Notes: generated from the sequence alone by a model not told the origin. Shown: positions 229 through 13,191, counted from the stretch's first letter. The stretch is 64,000 bases of DNA from a virus (IMGVR_UViG_3300021365_000005:1-64000); one strand, 5' to 3'. A program made the numbers and translations.

Positions 229-2691
229 TTAAGCTGGTTGGGATATCTTTTTAACATATCCTTTGTATGCATTAAGCATAGTTTTAACTTCTGGTATAAG
301 TGCGAACTCTTCTAGTTGCTCATAGATTTGTTTTTTAAAGTAGACATCATAATCAATGCTAAATACGTCTGGCCTTTCATCGATAAACTTAAGGTCCGCT
401 TCATTTAAGCATATTGCTTTTTGTCTGTCGCCTTTTTTTAGATCTGGTTCGCAATTAGACTTGATATAGAATAAGAATGGATTATCCTTATTAGTGATTT
501 CAATGCCTAATTTGTTGTTTGCCCACTTAGATGCTTTTACGTGCTGAGGCATAGTCTTTGTATACTCAGAAAATGGTTTTCCAAAAGCTTTGGCTATTCC
601 TAGATCAGCATATGGTATTGTTTCAATCTCTGCTCGTATCTGAAGTAGCCAATTTAAGTCTAATTCATTACGAACAGCTTTTTCAGCCATTTCATTAAGT
701 TTAGCCTTTAGGAATTCAGGAGTGTCTTTTCGGATTATATTTAACCCGCGAATAACTTTTTTATTATTTTCCCGAATAATACCGTAGTATCGCTTTTTAG
801 CTGAACTGAAATAGATATACTCTAGATCATACTCGAATTTAAGATCCATGTGCTGATAGTCCATATTAATGCCAGGATTATAGTGCTTAACGAAATTGTT
901 TTCGAGGTCCTTATTAAAGCCTATGAGTTTTTGTTCCATAGCTTCAGGAGTTTCACCTTCGGACCTAACAAAAATTGAATCTGTATCTCCATAGAGAGTT
1001 TTATGGCCCCGATCTTTAAAGTTGACTATAGCATACTTTAGAGCTTGTCTGGCAAAGAATGTGATAGCATCTGCACATTCATATGAGCATAACCTAAAAT
1101 AGTTAAAGCCCATTGCACCGTATGCTGAATTCATAATAAGCTTAAAAGCCCATTGTCTTTTGTGCATAGCATCGACTTGACTCTTATCATATTCGCCAGC
1201 TTTTAACTTTCTATTGATTTCCACTCTTTCGTGAAATAGGCCTTTTAAGGCTTGTGGCAATATACCTTGTTGGTGCGAGTGTGCATAGAATAGATAACGA
1301 CCCCCTATTAAGTCAGCTTGTTTACCTGTGTCTACATAGTCAATATTTTCTGCTTTTAACTGAGCTACAATATCTTCTATGTCCATTCCAGCTTCCATAC
1401 ATGCTTGCTCTGAAGCTATGAATGTTTCAGGGCTAATATTAAAAGCCATTATAGTTGTTGGGTATAGAGAAGTGTAGTCCATTACAGTAACATCCTCAGA
1501 CCTACCAGGTTCTGTAGGATCTATTACGATAGCACCTGCAAAAGGCTTCCGAGGAATTGTTCTTCGGGTTGGGAATATTAACTTATTGTGGAATTCCTTG
1601 ATGATGTAGTTGTCTACGATCATTGACTTAAAGAACACCAAAGAAAGAGATTCTAGATTAGCAATCTGTTGGATGGCTGTGTATAAGTCGAACATCTGGA
1701 TCTTATCATTAATCTCTTTTAAGATTTCAACGTCACGAATAGCGTAGCGAATAAACCCATCATAATCTTCGAGCCAATCACGCCAAGTAACATCAGTTAA
1801 CTTATCCAGATCAGGGTCACCTAAGATTTCCTTAGCAGCAGTAGCTAGCTTCCAGTTGGGTAGATTGTACCCCATGTCCTGAAGACCTGTCATCATATCT
1901 ACGTGGTCTAATCCACGAATAGCTGTTCTCCAGAATTCGCCACGTTTACGCATGTAGATGTCATTAATAGGCGATAGCATTTCAGCAGGTAAACCTAAGA
2001 CCTTACAACGATTAATAATGTATGGCATATCATAGCCATCAGAATACCAACCTGAAAGAATGTCTACCTTGCTTACTCTAACAAGGTTAAGGAATGCCAT
2101 AATCATTTCCTCTTCGGTCTTTGTGTAGATGTAGCTGACATTGCCCTTGTCTTCGAGCTTAGGCTCTTCTAAGTTAGCAGTGTGTTTGGGATGCCATGAC
2201 ATAACAAAGTACTGATCTTTTTCAGTTGAATATGTTACCAATGAAGTAATAGGCATTAAAGCCTTTTCGGGCTTATTCATAGACGAATCGTCAGGATCAT
2301 ACCATGTCTCAATGTCGTAGTACATGATATGTCGCTTAGTAGACCACTCTTGCTTATTGTCTAGAACATATTTGAATTCAGGCTTTACGTCTGCTTGAAA
2401 TACCTTGCCAGGATAGCTTTTTGATAGTTTGTTCTTTTCTTTAATCGAGCTATAGTAAACCCGTTGTACCATGTCTCCATGTAGGGTTTTATAGATTTTT
2501 GTATCATTACAATCGAATTGGTTCTTATCGTCAAGATCCGCAATATCTTCATACTTGTAGTAAAAGTAGTCCCGATATTTATCCACGTGTTCTTTATAGT
2601 TCCCTTCGGAATCATAACCGAACTTATGAATATTCCACATACCTTTATCGAATTTAGCGGCTATTCTTGAAAGTTTGAAATCCATGTGCAT
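229..2691 (-). CDS. polB: Family B DNA polymerase with 3'-5' exonuclease (T4 gp43-like)
   Basis: ExoI YYDIETW, motif A DYTSLYPTTI, motif B KLIMNSAYG, motif C YGDTDS. Confidence 0.97.
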   Translation of the reverse strand: MHMDFKLSRIAAKFDKGMWNIHKFGYDSEGNYKEHVDKYRDYFYYKYEDIADLDDKNQFDCNDTKIYKTLHGDMVQRVYYSSIKEKNKLSKSYPGKVFQADVKPEFKYVLDNKQEWSTKRHIMYYDIETWYDPDDSSMNKPEKALMPITSLVTYSTEKDQYFVMSWHPKHTANLEEPKLEDKGNVSYIYTKTEEEMIMAFLNLVRVSKVDILSGWYSDGYDMPYIINRCKVLGLPAEMLSPINDIYMRKRGEFWRTAIRGLDHVDMMTGLQDMGYNLPNWKLATAAKEILGDPDLDKLTDVTWRDWLEDYDGFIRYAIRDVEILKEINDKIQMFDLYTAIQQIANLESLSLVFFKSMIVDNYIIKEFHNKLIFPTRRTIPRKPFAGAIVIDPTEPGRSEDVTVMDYTSLYPTTIMAFNISPETFIASEQACMEAGMDIEDIVAQLKAENIDYVDTGKQADLIGGRYLFYAHSHQQGILPQALKGLFHERVEINRKLKAGEYDKSQVDAMHKRQWAFKLIMNSAYGAMGFNYFRLCSYECADAITFFARQALKYAIVNFKDRGHKTLYGDTDSIFVRSEGETPEAMEQKLIGFNKDLENNFVKHYNPGINMDYQHMDLKFEYDLEYIYFSSAKKRYYGIIRENNKKVIRGLNIIRKDTPEFLKAKLNEMAEKAVRNELDLNWLLQIRAEIETIPYADLGIAKAFGKPFSEYTKTMPQHVKASKWANNKLGIEITNKDNPFLFYIKSNCEPDLKKGDRQKAICLNEADLKFIDERPDVFSIDYDVYFKKQIYEQLEEFALIPEVKTMLNAYKGYVKKISQPA

Positions 2692-2768: not shown

Positions 2769-3206
2769 TTATTTTTCGCCTGTGCTTCCGAACCCACCTT
2801 CGCCGCGAGTAGAGACTTCTGTATATAGATCTGCCTCAGGTACTTCCTGGAGGAATGGGTTACCTAATGGTAATAGTACAAATTGAACAATCTTATCTCC
2901 AGGATTAATAACTTGCTCATGTTCACCAACGTTGGTTAAGTTTATATGAACTTCACCTTGATAGCCATTATCAACTACGCAAGCTCCAACGTGCAGAGAC
3001 TTTTTAACTGCAACGCCAGACTTATTAAATGCAACTAAAGCAAATCCTTTGGGTACATTTACCTTGATTCCAGAAGCTATTAAGCAAGATTCTCCGGGGT
3101 TGATTCTTATCATTTTTTGATCTTCTGGTACGAAGAAATCTATACCAGCGTCTGTACTGTTTGCTCTGGTAGGAAGCTTTACATTTCTAATTTTTGATAT
3201 TTTCAT
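2769..3206 (-). CDS. dut: Trimeric dUTPase
   Basis: AGIDF, NKSG, VVDNGYQGEV, KIVQ and RGEGGFGSTG motifs. Confidence 0.93.
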   Translation of the reverse strand: MKISKIRNVKLPTRANSTDAGIDFFVPEDQKMIRINPGESCLIASGIKVNVPKGFALVAFNKSGVAVKKSLHVGACVVDNGYQGEVHINLTNVGEHEQVINPGDKIVQFVLLPLGNPFLQEVPEADLYTEVSTRGEGGFGSTGEK

Positions 3207-3949
3207 TATTTGTTCTTTTGTCTTAAAACTCCAAGTTCATTCTTGAAGACGTGTAGTGAAACTATATGCATATTAAAATAGCCTGGCTTGACATTTTCCC
3301 AGCCGGGCTCGCTTTTAAGTTGGTCTAGTATCCAGAATAACTTTCCGCAAGCTAGATATATATCATCTCTTAAGTGTCTTAAATAGTCACAAGATCTAAT
3401 ATAGTAAGTTAGATGCATAACATTATCTCTCCTAATAAAGTGATATCCTATTGTGCATGGTACTCTTTCACCATGGGTTGCTCCGGTGTCTTCTGGGAAC
3501 CACATTGGTAGAAATGCTTGCCTAGTAAATGGCTCTTTGCGTAGCATATCTACTACGTCACCCATATTACCATAATCATAGCGTATACCTTTTAATTTTG
3601 GAGACCATAATCTTTCTGGATATGTATGACTGAATTTCTCATCAGCTTTAAATTGCTTATTTCCTCTTTGGGCAAAAGGCCACCATTCATTACTTGGAGG
3701 AGGATTTAAAGGTTCGCCACCTACCCTTTCCTGTAAGTGGTCCTTAGCCCATGGGAGGTTTGGCCGAACTTCATCAATCACTTGTACCATATTGTCAGGT
3801 ATAACAAATTTGATAGTGTGATTTAGAAGTTCGACCATTGGTTGTTCAACATCAATAGATTGCCACTTGCCTGAAAATACTTCTACTCCATTTTGGTGAA
3901 GCTTTTCTTTTGCAAATCTAATGGCATCTTTTGGCTTTGTGAACATCAT
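3206..3949 (-). CDS. Thymidylate synthase superfamily enzyme, dCMP-type (hydroxymethylase/methylase-like)
   Basis: TRQA, catalytic PCT, RSCDYLRHLRDD and SLHVF motifs; Asp at the position equivalent to ThyA Asn177. Confidence 0.85.
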   Translation of the reverse strand: MMFTKPKDAIRFAKEKLHQNGVEVFSGKWQSIDVEQPMVELLNHTIKFVIPDNMVQVIDEVRPNLPWAKDHLQERVGGEPLNPPPSNEWWPFAQRGNKQFKADEKFSHTYPERLWSPKLKGIRYDYGNMGDVVDMLRKEPFTRQAFLPMWFPEDTGATHGERVPCTIGYHFIRRDNVMHLTYYIRSCDYLRHLRDDIYLACGKLFWILDQLKSEPGWENVKPGYFNMHIVSLHVFKNELGVLRQKNK

Positions 3950-5310
3950 TTTTCAGTGTGATAATCTACGAACAAATCTAATACTTTTTTGCGGTATTGC
4001 ATTTGGTCTTTTTTAATACTAGGATTTTTTAGGGGAGCTTTAATTCTGTCAAGAATCTTTTTTGGGATATCATCCTTAAAGGCTTCTTTCAATATAGACT
4101 TATGAGTTCTATCTTTTAGATCTAAAGATCTAGCAAACCTAACAACTTCATGACCTAGAAATGGAGATCTTAATTCTATAGTATGAGCCATAGACATACG
4201 GTCTAATCTAGGTAGGTGATAGTATGTTAATTCGTCAAAAATATCAGACCCTTGGGAATCATACTCATCTATTCTGCGGTAGCCTCCAAATAACTCATCA
4301 GCACCGTCTCCAGATATAACTATTCTATGTCCAGTTTTAGCAACTGCTTCAAATAGGTGGTATTGAGGAATTACAGACCCTAGGTCAATTGGAGTTTCAT
4401 TCCACTTGCAATATATTTCAGATAGCTTTGTTTTATCCTCTAAATCATAAGTTAGCCTTTTGACCTTTATTCCCCAGTGGTCTTCACATAGGCTTACATA
4501 CTCATCTTCTCCGTTGGAAATAGTGTAGTATGTAACATCTGCTTTTAACTCTTCTAGTATTGATGTTATGATTGTTGAGTCAAGCCCACCAGATAGTAAA
4601 ACTGATATTGGGTAGTTTTTAGATAGTAGTCTTCGCTTAACAGACTCGACTAAAATTTCTTTTAGACTTCCAGATGGCGACTCATTAAGTAAAGTCCAGT
4701 TTTCTGCAGTTCTCATATAACGAGGTTGTCCGAAACGATAATTATACCAGAATCTTGGGTCTAGTCTTTTTATTCTATTCCAAGGAGTTCGACAGTCATG
4801 GTTATAGCCAAACTTATGTATTGCCCCAATATATGAATCATCTATAGTATCATAGGGTCTAATTAAAGGTTCAATTTCTGAACATATTTCTCCATGGGTA
4901 TTTACATATAACTGTTTTTTGCCTAAAGGGTCATTCATTGCAGTTATCATTTTAGTTTTAGCATCATAGAGAACTATAGACCAAAACCCATCCCAGTTAG
5001 AAATATCATCCTTATACATAGAAATTTTCTCTAGATCAATAGATCCTATAGTTGCGAAAAAATCTACTAGATATTCTGTGTCTGAACTAAATTTTTCGGT
5101 ATCATAGTTAAAAATTTCACCATTAAATAGTAGGTATAAGTCTGGGGCATATTCATATGGCATAGCCCATTTGTCATTATCTACAGTTTGAATTGGAAGC
5201 CTATGGTGTGACAATCTTATATGATCGACCATTATAGTCTTGTGTTCTGTTCCTCGGTGACTTATAAGGTGAGATCTATCAGGACCTCCTGAAATTGATA
5301 TTCCACACAT
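3946..5310 (-). CDS. Asparagine synthetase B-like glutamine amidotransferase (Ntn + PP-loop); true start probably MCGI at 5310
   Basis: MCGI, HRG, FNGEIFNY, SDTE, LLSGGLDS, SGDGADELFGGY and DRMSMAHTIELRSPFL; ATG at 5310 lies 1 nt after the upstream stop. Confidence 0.9.
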   Translation of the reverse strand: MCGISISGGPDRSHLISHRGTEHKTIMVDHIRLSHHRLPIQTVDNDKWAMPYEYAPDLYLLFNGEIFNYDTEKFSSDTEYLVDFFATIGSIDLEKISMYKDDISNWDGFWSIVLYDAKTKMITAMNDPLGKKQLYVNTHGEICSEIEPLIRPYDTIDDSYIGAIHKFGYNHDCRTPWNRIKRLDPRFWYNYRFGQPRYMRTAENWTLLNESPSGSLKEILVESVKRRLLSKNYPISVLLSGGLDSTIITSILEELKADVTYYTISNGEDEYVSLCEDHWGIKVKRLTYDLEDKTKLSEIYCKWNETPIDLGSVIPQYHLFEAVAKTGHRIVISGDGADELFGGYRRIDEYDSQGSDIFDELTYYHLPRLDRMSMAHTIELRSPFLGHEVVRFARSLDLKDRTHKSILKEAFKDDIPKKILDRIKAPLKNPSIKKDQMQYRKKVLDLFVDYHTEK

Positions 5311-5311
5311 T

Positions 5312-5851
5312 TTAATTTTCCTCATTTAAAAGTTCACGGAAATCAAGTGATGAAAACATTGTGAACTCGTTTGCGAATCTAGTTATTTTTAAATTTGGAA
5401 GTGCTTCATGAAGCTCAGACAATAACTCTTCATATAATAAGACTTCTTTATTTTTAGACGAGTCATCCCAAACGTCTTTTGCCCCACGTTCACGAGGATT
5501 AGTACCATGAATATATATTATTTCAGTCTCATCAAATAATCCTTCGTTAGCAAAAGTCCAGAGCTGTTTAACAGCTTCATCCATAGTTATCCTATTTTCC
5601 ATTACCCCCCAAACTAAAACCGTAAGTATTCCTCGGTCAATATATAGTTTTTTTGTAATGTGCTTATCACGGTTTAAGTGGTGCAGCATTATTTCTTTAC
5701 TAATAGCAAATTGGTGTGTGCCCAAATCATTATTGCTTAACTTAAGTTTTCCATACCAAAAAGGAAATGGAAACTTATAAGTCTTAATGTGTGCTTGCTG
5801 CAGTAAGTAAGTTTTGCCAGTGTTTCTGGCCCCTTCAATCAATTTTAACAT
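5312..5851 (-). CDS. dNMP / thymidylate kinase-like P-loop kinase
   Basis: IEGARNTGKT Walker A and YIDRG motif; size 179 aa. Confidence 0.8.
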   Translation of the reverse strand: MLKLIEGARNTGKTYLLQQAHIKTYKFPFPFWYGKLKLSNNDLGTHQFAISKEIMLHHLNRDKHITKKLYIDRGILTVLVWGVMENRITMDEAVKQLWTFANEGLFDETEIIYIHGTNPRERGAKDVWDDSSKNKEVLLYEELLSELHEALPNLKITRFANEFTMFSSLDFRELLNEEN

Positions 5852-5877
5852 CTATAACTTTTATTTATTGTATACTA

Positions 5878-5927
5878 CAAATATACGAAACTATTGGTGA
5901 TATAAAAAATATATCACAGGGTATTTC
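5878..5927 (-). promoter_or_regulatory. Class A promoter (host-type TATATTTG -7 element plus upstream A/T boxes) for the kinase-AsnB-TS-dut operon
   Basis: Coding strand reads GAAATACCC...ATTTTTTAT...TTTCGTATATTTG, an exact match to Bacteroidota TAnnTTTG. Confidence 0.75.
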
Positions 5928-5969
5928 ACAATAGCCCGTAATATATTCTCGTTATCCAGTCGTCACGTC

Positions 5970-7838
5970 TCATAAAGCTTCTACTGTGCAGCTTCCGCCG
6001 CTACAAGCTAATTCCCCTGATAGGTCTGTATTGTCTTCCATTTCTACTACACGGGTAAGATCTATAGAATTTAAAGATTCTATCATTGACTCATACTGGG
6101 CTTTAGTTATGTCTTCAAATGGGGCTTGAACGTATGTTCCTCCATCATGTGGTAGTACTGATAATCCATTATAAGATTCTCTGTTTTCCCACATCCACTC
6201 TCCGACTGGTTCCCAATCCTTTTCTTTAAGAGAAACTGTTGCAGATACGTTGTGGGTATTAGATCCGTTTCTATGTCCAGGTTTAACCCATTCTGTAGCT
6301 ACCTTTTTGATTCTTTCTAATAGATCGAGAGGTTTTTCTGTACGAAGGATTGCTCCTCGGGGAGCTTTCTGAGGTATACTAATGACCGCAGTGTCATGGG
6401 CTCTAAAATAGTCATCTTCAACTAATTCCGGATGGTACTCCATTAAATATCCATAAATAGCTTCGTTTTTACCAACGCGAAGTCTTCGGATATAATATGT
6501 ATTGTGCCATGCATGAATTCCAGAGGATGTTCCTAGTACTAATGATGTTGTTCCTGCAGGCTTTACCGTAGTTATTCTTGCTGCTGGATTAATACCTAAT
6601 ATTTTAGCCATTCTAGTATTTTCTCTTTTTGCTATGCTTGAAGCTTTTTTAAGATCATACTTTAATACTTCACCAGATCCAATACCAGTCATTGAAACCC
6701 CTACCAAAGCATCTTTTTCTGTGGTCTCTTTCCAGACTTCTCTAAGGTAGTGAAAGTCTGTATATGAAGCTTGGATAGTTCCAATAAATGAAGCTACTTT
6801 AACCCTTTTATTAAAATCTTCTTGAGATTCTATATTAGATACATTTACTTCGCATAGGTTACAAAACTGATAAGGTCGAAGAGCAATTTCGCAACAAGGA
6901 TTAGTTCCCCAGTCTTTATCATTTGACAAGTAAATTCCTGGCTCTCCAGCTCCAGATAACTCTACACGCTTCCATAAGTCCATAAAAAATTCTTTTGTTA
7001 TTTTATGACGCATTAGGACTGCTGAATTGTTTGCACGACCTCGCTGGGCATTTAGTTCCCACCAATTTCCAGATTTACAAGAAATCATTTTTTCATCTGT
7101 AGCTGTAAATAGGCTAATAAGAGCTGCTCTTCGAATACCACCAGCTAGTACTGCGTCTGCAATATGGCAAACAATATCATGTACTTCTAGTGTTGATAGT
7201 CTGTCGCCTTCTAACTTAGCCTCAAGAATACCTTCGATTTTTAAAATGCACTCTTTTAGTGGCTGAGGTCCTGGGGCTTTACCACCTGATGTTACTAGCA
7301 TTGCACCTTTAGGTCTGATATCCGAATAGTCAAATTTAATCCTGGATCCTCTTTTGTTTCCTAGGAATGACTTCATAAGTACCTTAATAGCATCTGCCCA
7401 TCCTTCTATAGAATCTCCTATTACAAACCTTCGTTCCCGTTTTGGGAATGGCTTTAAAACGTGGGGTAATTGATCTACGTGATGGTTTTGCACACTATAG
7501 CCAACTCCACAGCCACTAAGTAATAAAAACATTGTTTCACTAAAAGAGTCAATATGATCTATAGGCAAATAGCTGCAATTATAAAGTCTGTTAGGAGAAA
7601 TTTCTATCGGACGACCTCCGAATTGTAAGCTTCGCATAGATGGCAATACTTTTTTAGAATATACAAATTTATAACATTCTTCTATTTCCTTAGCCAAGTC
7701 AGGGAATTTTTTTATATGCATAGCTTTGTTGCGATCTACTAGCTCTTCCCATGTTTCCCTTCTATTTTCATCGGGTGTGTATTTTGCATACTTCATATGC
7801 ACTGTCAAATCAGACAGGATTTTATTCGATATATTCAT
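5970..7838 (-). CDS. nrdJ: Ribonucleotide reductase, class II (B12-dependent, RTPR/NrdJ-like)
   Basis: GTNPCCEI, CNL, TTVKPAGTTSLV and C-terminal ACSGGSC; no beta subunit nearby. Confidence 0.88.
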   Translation of the reverse strand: MNISNKILSDLTVHMKYAKYTPDENRRETWEELVDRNKAMHIKKFPDLAKEIEECYKFVYSKKVLPSMRSLQFGGRPIEISPNRLYNCSYLPIDHIDSFSETMFLLLSGCGVGYSVQNHHVDQLPHVLKPFPKRERRFVIGDSIEGWADAIKVLMKSFLGNKRGSRIKFDYSDIRPKGAMLVTSGGKAPGPQPLKECILKIEGILEAKLEGDRLSTLEVHDIVCHIADAVLAGGIRRAALISLFTATDEKMISCKSGNWWELNAQRGRANNSAVLMRHKITKEFFMDLWKRVELSGAGEPGIYLSNDKDWGTNPCCEIALRPYQFCNLCEVNVSNIESQEDFNKRVKVASFIGTIQASYTDFHYLREVWKETTEKDALVGVSMTGIGSGEVLKYDLKKASSIAKRENTRMAKILGINPAARITTVKPAGTTSLVLGTSSGIHAWHNTYYIRRLRVGKNEAIYGYLMEYHPELVEDDYFRAHDTAVISIPQKAPRGAILRTEKPLDLLERIKKVATEWVKPGHRNGSNTHNVSATVSLKEKDWEPVGEWMWENRESYNGLSVLPHDGGTYVQAPFEDITKAQYESMIESLNSIDLTRVVEMEDNTDLSGELACSGGSCTVEAL

Positions 7839-12224: not shown

Positions 12225-12275
12225 TAAATATAAGACATAACTTTTTAAATAAAAAATTATTTGTTGGTTAGTTTT
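12225..12275 (-). promoter_or_regulatory. Class A promoter upstream of the ssb-uvsX-exo-helicase operon
   Basis: AAACTAACC...ATAATTTTTTAT...CTTATATTTAC, same spacing as the other class A sites. Confidence 0.7.
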
Positions 12276-13191
12276 CAAAATTTGTCATATAATCTTGAAT
12301 AGATAATTCTTTTGCTTTAGATTCCACCATAATATCTAGTGGTAGCCCCCACGAGTTGATTTTGTCGTGGATGTAGTCTGAGTGAGCTTGCGGCTTTATT
12401 TTTGGATTATTTTCGTGCAAGGCTTTAGATTCTGAGTAGTGTACACATTGCTTGATGCCATCTGGCCAAGTTTTAGATGCTAAGTGTAGTGCAGCTTCTT
12501 CGGATAGATCCCCAGTGCAAAACTTGTGGTGGTGATAGTCGAAGACAATAGGTATGCCAATAACTTTATGTATACCATGGTACAAATCCATTACAGAATA
12601 CATTGAAGCACGGTCGTCGTTTTCTATAGTAAGCCTAGCTTGTGCACCAGGACTAAGACGTTTAAAGCTTTCGCAGAAGCGAGCCATTGCTGCTATTTTG
12701 TCGCCATATGCGCCACCAACATGTATATTGATTTTTGCATAGTTGGATTGTGGTAGGCCCATTAGATCCATGACTTCCGCATGTTGGTTTAATTCGTGGA
12801 TTGATTTGTCTACGACTGACGGGGATGGGGAAGCCAAGACCACAAATGGACCTGGATGGAATGATAGACGCTGATTGTATGATTTAGCCAGTGTGCCAGC
12901 ACCTTTTAATATGTTTGATATTTTAGTGTAGTCTGGCAGATCTGATATTGCATACTCCGACATCCAAGGAAATATACCTGATGACATGCGAAATAGCTTG
13001 ATACCATTTGCATGATTCCACTTTATAATTTCCACTAAGTCTTTTGAATTTTGCAATGCTAATTCAGATGCATACTGAATGCCTTTAGCGTTAAATGTTT
13101 TTTTGATCATTGACCGACTTGTAAATATACCCGACTTTCGGAGGTGGGTATTGATACATGCATATCCTAATTGTGTTTCCATATTATCCAT
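12268..13191 (-). CDS. uvsE: UV damage endonuclease UvsE/UvdE
   Basis: LGYACIN, LFRMSS, RLSFHPGPF, IHVGG, LTIENDD, FDYHHH, HYSES, AHSDY, MVESKAKE. Confidence 0.95.
   Translation of the reverse strand: MDNMETQLGYACINTHLRKSGIFTSRSMIKKTFNAKGIQYASELALQNSKDLVEIIKWNHANGIKLFRMSSGIFPWMSEYAISDLPDYTKISNILKGAGTLAKSYNQRLSFHPGPFVVLASPSPSVVDKSIHELNQHAEVMDLMGLPQSNYAKINIHVGGAYGDKIAAMARFCESFKRLSPGAQARLTIENDDRASMYSVMDLYHGIHKVIGIPIVFDYHHHKFCTGDLSEEAALHLASKTWPDGIKQCVHYSESKALHENNPKIKPQAHSDYIHDKINSWGLPLDIMVESKAKELSIQDYMTNFEN

Follow-up and report, generated by a model that had tools for sequence, protein, structure and literature searches.

Whether phage DNA withstands restriction enzymes and CRISPR is decided by its modified bases, which have also been a source of epigenetic-sequencing tools. 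To our knowledge, the known pre-replicative cytosine pathways stop at a hydroxymethyl, methyl or hydroxyl group, or add carbamoyl groups or sugars. The operon analyzed here, from an uncultured marine phage, lies in the window, the 64,000-nucleotide (nt) stretch IMGVR_UViG_3300021365_000005:1-64000 of an IMG/VR virus record of 97,456 bp with an estimated completeness of 56%, and comprises genes for a predicted nucleotide kinase, a compact AsnB-like amidotransferase, a divergent homolog of thymidylate synthase (TS; the TS-like enzyme) and a dUTPase. Its closest known counterpart is the hydroxymethylcytosine pathway of phage T4, composed of gp42 deoxycytidylate (dCMP) hydroxymethylase, gp1 deoxynucleoside monophosphate (dNMP) kinase, gp56 dCTPase/dUTPase and cd dCMP deaminase. 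We propose, with a probability of roughly one half, that the operon is a pre-replicative pathway for a modified deoxycytidylate, organized in the style of T4 hydroxymethyl-dC synthesis with one extra enzyme, the amidotransferase.

Comparison with T4 reveals a TS-like enzyme that, like gp42, has the TS fold, an Asp at the position of E. coli ThyA Asn177, a Thr after the catalytic Cys and an Arg-x-Asp ending of the specificity loop. The locus also resembles T4 in combining a dedicated kinase and an NTP pyrophosphatase with a location beside the DNA polymerase gene, and dCMP deaminase genes occur in related clusters. In contrast to T4, the pyrophosphatase is an ordinary trimeric dUTPase, no gp56-like gene having been found in the fragment; position 143 of the TS-like enzyme (ThyA numbering) is Arg, where T4 has Asp; and an AsnB-like amidotransferase without T4 counterpart is added, with no glucosyltransferase seen. 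The window kinase is predicted to have a deoxynucleoside kinase/thymidylate kinase (dNK/TMPK) fold, the fold of gp1 lying outside this comparison.

The nearest precedents for a nitrogen-adding tailoring enzyme are the MetaGPA cassettes (PMC8670742), in which a TS homolog with Asp177 and without His147 is followed by an enzyme adding a nitrogen group. That enzyme is a carbamoyltransferase, leading to 5-carbamoyloxymethyl-cytosine, whereas here it is an AsnB-type amidotransferase. The GATase_7 domain was not enriched in the MetaGPA sewage data (PMC8670742), where its count was probably dominated by ordinary bacterial AsnB. A further relative is MilA, the CMP 5-hydroxymethylase of the mildiomycin pathway (PDB 5jnh, 5b6d), which tops the structural matches of the TS-like model, is cytosine-specific and carries Asp177 (PMC13326640); it differs in using a ribonucleotide within an antibiotic pathway, in its Asp at 143 and in its overall sequence (16% identity). 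The 5-hydroxy-dCMP synthases of RB69, DLP3 and RL38JI likewise carry Asp177 and work with a cognate dNMP kinase before replication (PMC13326640).

The operon and its immediate context are laid out as follows:

7838..5970, minus strand: class II-type ribonucleotide reductase (RNR; upstream context), phrog_367 1.4e-134, with Ribonuc_red_lgC and an RNR-II insertion domain
5852..5969, minus strand: AT-rich spacer of 118 nt upstream of the kinase, presumed promoter region from reading of the sequence
5851..5312, minus strand: predicted nucleotide/nucleoside kinase of dNK/TMPK fold, 179 amino acids (aa), containing the Walker A sequence EGARNTGKT as well as a DRG motif
5310..3946, minus strand: compact AsnB-like amidotransferase/PP-loop ATP pyrophosphatase, 454 aa from the MCGI Met, Asn_synthase 4.5e-42 and GATase_7
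3949..3206, minus strand: TS-like enzyme, cytosine-type, 247 aa, phrog_160 9.8e-27
3206..2769, minus strand: trimeric dUTPase, 145 aa, PF00692 6e-19
2691..229, minus strand: PolB, family B DNA polymerase (downstream context), 820 aa, with DNA_pol_B and exonuclease domains

Gene order and coupling are observed directly, and they agree with the initial annotation, which had described four translationally coupled genes directly upstream of polB. The kinase and AsnB-like genes meet at TAA, a single nucleotide and ATG-TGT-GGA, leaving a 1-nt gap, and the next two junctions are an ATGA overlap (AsnB-like/TS-like) and a TAATG overlap (TS-like/dUTPase). A spacer of 77 nt separates the dUTPase gene from polB, whose product shows approximately 25% identity to T4-like cyanophage polymerases, and the RNR gene flanks the operon on the other side. 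Although the AsnB-like open frame extends from 5325 to 3946 (459 aa), all 10 aligned homologs open with MCG, indicating that the real start is the Met at 5310, which yields the N-terminal Cys required by amidotransferases of the N-terminal nucleophile class. The spacing of the four genes suggests a single transcription unit, with a promoter that would lie in the upstream spacer. A sigma-70 consensus scan returned no sites within that 118-nt spacer, a scan for terminator-like sites found none on the coding strand within the operon, and the Bacteroidota-type TTTG/TAnnTTTG pattern showed no enrichment in the window.

The TS-like protein barely passes the Thymidylat_synt profile (PF00303; 25.2 bits against a cut-off of 24.3) and contains both VPCT and RSCDYLRHLRDD. 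Its residues were numbered by HMMER alignment to L. casei TS N229D and by MAFFT alignment with E. coli ThyA and T4 gp42. On these alignments, Asp196 occupies the position of ThyA Asn177, Thr166 that of His147, His192 that of Gly173 and Arg162 that of Leu143, and the catalytic Cys146 and Asp169 are retained as Cys165 and Asp188. The active-site reading of the initial annotation (Asp at the Asn177 site, PCT in place of PCH and His for the conserved Gly of the loop) is thus placed on an explicit alignment. Across 28 TS-like homologs, Cys165, Arg185, Ser186 and Asp188 (catalytic Cys146, Arg166, Ser167 and Asp169) are invariant, as is Arg at position 143 throughout the clade.

Structural prediction with AlphaFold2 yielded a model with a mean predicted local distance difference test score (pLDDT) of 85.6. 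Foldseek returned 396 matches to this model with E <= 0.001, those listed being TS-family chains, and the seven top matches were all MilA CMP hydroxymethylase (E 6e-14, template modeling score [TM] 0.68). The protein combines the fold and catalytic residues of ThyA with the loss of both Asn177 and His147, and it shares Asp177 with the dCMP/CMP hydroxymethylases while lacking their acidic residue at 143. Residues 177 and 147 were the best two separators of cytosine-modified from unmodified viral contigs in MetaGPA (PMC8670742), and together with the match to MilA this argues for the cytosine-type assignment made earlier. The TS-like protein was also considered as a 5-hydroxy-dCMP synthase, and this was ruled out: D169N, the diagnostic change of these enzymes (PMC13326640), is absent, Asp188 being retained.

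It is very improbable that the TS-like protein is simply the thymidylate synthase of the phage, acting with the dUTPase and a thymidylate kinase in routine dTTP supply next to an auxiliary asparagine synthetase. The dUTPase-TS-TMPK combination is classical, and the 97-kb fragment, only 56% complete, yielded no further ThyA or ThyX. Asp at 177, Thr at 147 and the cytosine hydroxymethylases as nearest structures all speak against such a role. Furthermore, a member of the clade adjoins canonical ThyA in Microbacterium phage Huwbert, and both are present in four complete jumbo phages, a coexistence indicating that the TS-like enzyme is no backup for dTMP synthesis.

Several variants of these genes were observed along the way. 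In MW202455 (locus L007, 2909-4509) and Serratia phage Tlacuache (locus L008, 4186-5870), a second, far more divergent TS-like gene precedes the Asp177 TS-like gene. This second gene, found in cultured and Manatee Spring phages, has approximately 15% identity, with the Cys and an RS[T] motif as its sole retained features; it constantly accompanies the Asp177 gene in those phages and is absent from the window. In the 430-kb jumbo phage G002 (C1:396511-398406; loci L179/L180), the Asp177 TS-like gene forms an open frame of 637 aa in which some 1.1 kb of extra sequence falls between match residues 169 and 164; this looks like an intein or another in-frame insertion. The canonical ThyA frames of jumbo phages G001, G002, G003 and G005 (loci L171-L175) are 407-434 aa long, much longer than ThyA, suggesting a fusion or insertion.

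The AsnB-like protein carries both the MCGI and SGGLDS motifs, and scores 200 bits against TIGR01536, below the equivalog cut-off of 267.1. We compared its residues, in E. coli AsnB numbering, across 11 family members. The glutaminase residues C1, R30, R49, N74, E76 and D98 and the PP-loop S234-S239 are all conserved, upholding the claim of an intact N-terminal Cys glutaminase and SGGLDS PP-loop, and the equivalents of D351, E352, R387 and K449 are kept as in AsnB and human ASNS. The family departs from these asparagine synthetases in being approximately 100 residues shorter, in its sub-equivalog score and in the changes E348D, D384H, K376 to I/V/M and a TTxR segment without its Arg. We take K376 and the TTxR Arg to act in the aspartate site of AsnB. 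For human ASNS, the functions of E364, D367 and D400 have been described (PMC6748925).

The AsnB-like family comprises proteins of 430-480 aa with thousands of metagenomic members, and it is nearly confined to viral contigs. Among 185,579 GTDB species genomes, only four loci reach at least 35% identity, all on contigs of metagenome-assembled genomes (MAGs); the family kinase is present in three of the four, and one of these (L013) also has RNR, dUTPase and TS-like genes. The family is apparently virus-only. The gene was also considered as a recently captured host asnB, which was rejected, cellular homologs showing less than 30% identity bar the four MAG contigs. A tblastn search of 50,697 cultured-phage records with the window AsnB-like protein returned only matches of 22-26% identity, the other three queries (two further AsnB-like variants and the kinase) returned none, and a search of the operon DNA against cultured phages gave no match.

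An Asn_synthase-family gene was also found in Achromobacter phage Motura (locus L208, 5001-6281), between queC and a DpdA-like transglycosylase gene in a 7-deazaguanine DNA-modification cluster (QueC, DpdA-like transglycosylase, QueE, FolE). It differs from the window gene in its low identity (24%), in belonging to a purine pathway and in having no adjacent TS-like or kinase gene. The Motura cluster shows that base modification has drawn on the AsnB fold on at least one other occasion.

To our analysis of the operon itself we added a survey of its genes on other phage backbones, which demonstrated that the kinase-AsnB pair and the Asp177 TS clade belong together. In a first branch of the AsnB-like family (class I), 80 of 80 IMG/VR loci have the kinase gene immediately before the AsnB-like gene, on its upstream side, as do the corresponding metagenome loci. 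Six of these 80 loci belong to the window's own lineage, also represented by Tara Oceans scaffolds, and keep the order RNR-kinase-AsnB-TS-dUTPase-PolB throughout. Scaffolds from Tara Oceans are found in L240, L281 and L283. The other 74 show a conserved neighborhood typical of large T4-like phages, with the pair after the gp23-like capsid region; the T4-like records checked reach 430 kb, and five were scored complete. The RNR-then-kinase order is shared by loci L091-L096 and L013. The position next to polB, read correctly in the window, is restricted to the lineage of the window phage.

In a second, deeply diverged AsnB-like branch (class II), a TS-like gene lies within 1.6 kb in 24 metagenome loci as well as in L013 and L209, the latter a 30-kb lambdoid-like contig with NinG, ERF and Terminase_3. 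The TS-like and AsnB-like frames overlap in nine class II loci. PC[TS], Arg143, His173 and Asp177 are found in 25 of 25 TS-like genes beside AsnB-like, even though these 25 genes form two subclades with a mutual identity of only about 25%. Six loci of the branch have no TS-like match; in five of them the upstream sequence is shorter than 0.5 kb, and L223 has 3.5 kb upstream, likewise without a match. Recurrent class II neighbors are N6/N4 and C5 DNA methylases, dCMP deaminase, dUTPase, dNK and uracil-DNA glycosylase, and L013 reads RNR, dUTPase, kinase, dUTPase_2-like, two DNA-methylase-like genes, AsnB-like, TS-like and dCMP deaminase.

Among jumbo genomes at least 90% complete that carry the kinase-AsnB pair, an Asp177 TS-like gene is present in all six, together with a canonical ThyA, and the encoded TS-like proteins are 56-62% identical to that of the window. 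Between the window phage and jumbo phage G003, only 17 open reading frames are detectably shared, with core genes 23-34% identical, and the TS-like (58%), AsnB-like (52%), NT5C deoxynucleotidase (52%) and kinase (38%) genes are among the most similar. In a quick maximum-likelihood search with long branches, the window lineage is placed in the AsnB-like tree as sister to a long-branched TS-adjacent clade. The association of AsnB-like, cytosine-type TS-like and kinase genes is old, recurs on distinct backbones and goes far beyond chance, and the 80/80 kinase pairing, the 26 TS-adjacent loci and the jumbo co-presence together establish that the link is real. The proposed synteny of this TS clade with AsnB thus received strong support, with 26 further loci on unrelated backbones and the kinase in 80 of 80 loci of another branch. 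We also considered the four genes as one fixed cassette, which was rejected, the kinase-AsnB and TS-AsnB pairs being separable modules.

Additional genes accompany these pairs in some loci. In L013 (3204-5993; GTDB contig PWJP01000112, binned as Saprospirales), the kinase and AsnB-like genes flank genes for a dUTPase_2-like protein of gp56-type fold, an N6/N4 methylase and a C5-methylase-like protein of 416 aa, and N6/N4 methylase-like genes recur between TS-like and AsnB-like in metagenome loci such as L210 and L230. Two relatives of the window with 63% AsnB identity carry an extra gene between dUTPase and PolB (L094:8545-9045 and L240:8647-9009); that of L240 matches dCMP deaminase (36% to that of L013), and the window has only the 77-nt spacer at this point.

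The repeated linkage bears on the possibility that nucleotides are substrates of the TS-like enzyme and the kinase alone, in a plain T4-like synthesis of 5-hydroxymethyl- or 5-methyl-dC, with the AsnB-like enzyme amidating something else (aspartate, a cell-wall or glycan carboxylate, or a peptide) and merely co-regulated with early genes. AsnB paralogs do amidate many non-nucleotide carboxylates, as reflected in NCBIfam matches to exopolysaccharide, NAGGN and lasso-peptide enzymes; moreover D351, E352, R387 and K449 are kept, and the jumbo-phage pair adjoins structural genes. The frames overlapping Asp177 TS-like genes in nine loci, the kinase in 80 of 80 loci and the unrelated backbones nevertheless make this explanation unlikely, as do the virtual absence of the family from cellular genomes, the score below the AsnB cut-off, D384H and the loss of K376 and the TTxR Arg.

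The kinase has no Pfam, PHROG or NCBIfam match above cut-off, the best Pfam scores being 20.5 bits for AAA_14 and, in a homolog, 26.0 bits for AAA_28, both under the cut-off of 27. Its AlphaFold2 model (pLDDT 92.7) matched deoxyadenosine kinases (8puu/2jas) and thymidylate kinases (2ccg, TM 0.70; 2v54) in Foldseek, and its ESM Atlas neighbors are NadR, TMPK and dNK clusters. Consistent with these results, an EGxRNxGK[ST] P-loop, DRG and a basic LID-like R..KDxWD are invariant in 32 homologs, so that the P-loop, DR(x), LID basic residues and fold of the dNK/TMPK enzymes are all present, with the family score as the missing element. The model therefore favors the dedicated nucleotide kinase predicted earlier. 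A complex prediction for the AsnB-like protein and the kinase scored 0.01 and was used neither for nor against their association.

The predicted kinase fold is relevant to a further explanation, in which the AsnB-like enzyme works post-replicatively on a modified base that is already part of the DNA, as in thymidine hypermodification, and the kinase activates that base in DNA. The PP-loop enzymes TilS and ThiI act on polynucleotides, which would fit. Furthermore, thymidine hypermodifications begin with 5-hydroxymethyl-dU (5hmdU) in DNA that is kinase-activated before amine substitution (PMC8989533, PMC11472151). The kinase fold, however, matches small-molecule dNK/TMPK enzymes, Pfam and NCBIfam profiles detected no DNA-binding domain in the AsnB-like protein or the kinase, and the window genes sit in an early nucleotide-metabolism block between RNR and PolB, so that we consider post-replicative action quite unlikely.

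The dUTPase scored 106.6 against TIGR00576 (cut-off 102.55) and 102.5 against NF001862 (cut-off 103), and all five dUTPase motifs are visible in its translation. It thus looks ordinary, and in other loci it is only an occasional neighbor. The initial annotation had treated the four genes as one set, and the dUTPase does not bear this out.

The same annotation had listed amination of a dUMP-type to a dCMP-type ring among the possible reactions. As a pyrimidine C4 aminase, the AsnB-like enzyme would adenylate O4 of dUMP (or of dTMP or 5-hydroxymethyl-dUMP) and exchange it for ammonia, giving a dCMP-type nucleotide that feeds the Asp177 TS-like enzyme, with dUMP supplied by the dUTPase. The dUTPase, AsnB-like, dCMP-type TS and kinase genes of the window would then form a linear path, no dCMP-supplying dCTPase was found in the fragment, and PP-loop enzymes such as GMP synthetase, ThiI and TilS adenylate ring oxygens. 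Ring-aminating PP-loop enzymes belong, however, to other subfamilies than Asn_synthase, and the AsnB-like protein retains most of the amine-binding acidic pocket of ASNS. The reaction also fits poorly with the dCMP deaminase genes found within the clusters of at least eight loci (L013, L211, L219, L220, L225, L227, L228 and L240), which would set up a futile cycle, and we regard it as improbable.

Under the pre-replicative deoxycytidylate pathway that we favor, the conserved Cys of the TS-like enzyme (Asp177, Thr147) would attack C6 of dCMP and place a one-carbon group, most likely hydroxymethyl, onto C5. The AsnB-like enzyme would then use PP-loop adenylation with ATP and ammonia derived by its glutaminase to make a nitrogen-bearing derivative of this product. 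Of the two chemically sensible candidates, one is 5-aminomethyl-dCMP, formed via an activated benzylic hydroxyl by analogy with kinase-activated 5hmdU in thymidine hypermodification; the other is a 5-carboxamide, which would fit classical AsnB chemistry if the C5 group bears a carboxylate. The dNK/TMPK-fold kinase would phosphorylate the modified dNMP, perhaps one not accepted by host kinases, and host NDP kinase followed by phage PolB would complete incorporation, with the dUTPase in its usual role of keeping dUTP out of DNA and supplying dUMP. More tentatively, the outcome may be a new DNA base, a C5 aminomethyl- or carboxamide-cytosine made at the nucleotide level by a TS-fold and then an AsnB-fold enzyme, although we would not put this specific identity at even odds.

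Several observations weigh against the proposed pathway. All of its chemistry is our inference, including the compound on which the AsnB-like enzyme acts, and so is entry of the product into DNA. AsnB-family enzymes adenylate carboxylates; we know of no AsnB-family enzyme with a hydroxymethyl group as its substrate, and no carboxylate-installing step is visible. Of the three acidic residues by which ASNS binds the amino group of aspartate, D351 and E352 are kept (with E348D), and the substrate may be amino-acid-like. At position 143, the Arg of the TS-like enzyme departs from the Asp or Glu of verified hydroxymethylases (PMC13326640), where the acidic residue is thought to admit water (PMC13326640), and this renders the C5 group installed by the enzyme uncertain. 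The jumbo TS-like gene lies approximately 100 kb from the kinase-AsnB pair, and 128 cultured phages have the TS-like clade without any AsnB-like gene. The TS-like enzyme thus works without the AsnB-like enzyme, and the amidotransferase looks like an optional tailoring step rather than a supplier of the TS substrate. Finally, no dCTPase (MazG or dUTPase_2) was found in the 97-kb fragment, so that full replacement of C is unproven; because the record is incomplete, failure to find a dCTPase, a further TS or a deaminase in it is weak evidence.

That dozens of unrelated, uncultured phages share the kinase/TS/AsnB-like pairing suggests that phage DNA contains a nitrogen-bearing cytosine not described before. 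Our literature searches returned no description of a pathway joining AsnB or an amidotransferase with TS in phage DNA modification, and no cultured phage with the AsnB-like pathway was found among the 50,697 phage records. An ATP- and glutamine-dependent amidotransferase tied to a cytosine-type TS would extend the known pathways by a new chemical step, and probably also by a new base. If the proposal is correct, it would represent the first Asn_synthase-type chemistry on a pyrimidine deoxynucleotide, in a pathway widespread in uncultured marine and freshwater phages ranging from 30-kb lambdoid-like to 430-kb jumbo genomes. The family is abundant in marine and freshwater viromes and absent from cultured phages, and has thus escaped biochemical study; a minimal TS and AsnB-like pair, such as that of L209, is small enough for direct work in E. 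coli.

Other genes of the window phage and its distant relatives were also recorded. In jumbo phages, RimK-like ATP-grasp genes occur in the vicinity of the kinase-AsnB pair and in that of the TS-like gene (L121:8399-9913 and L182:20-1267), one of them fused to a Zn-protease-like domain, and the jumbo TS-like neighbors (metallophosphoesterase, MGS-like, RimK-like and RNase HII) gave no clue to the pathway. Outside the window, the source record encodes an NT5C-family 5'(3')-deoxyribonucleotidase (G000:C1:91079-91549; L207:7079-7549, minus strand; PF06941 1.4e-16), which, at 52% identity to the jumbo-phage gene, is among the five genes most conserved between two very distant phages; it could remove canonical dNMP in the same nucleotide program. 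Within the window, a UvdE UV-damage endonuclease (12268-13191, minus strand; PF03851 1.7e-61) is 47% identical to its jumbo-phage homolog, compared to only about 25% for core replication genes.

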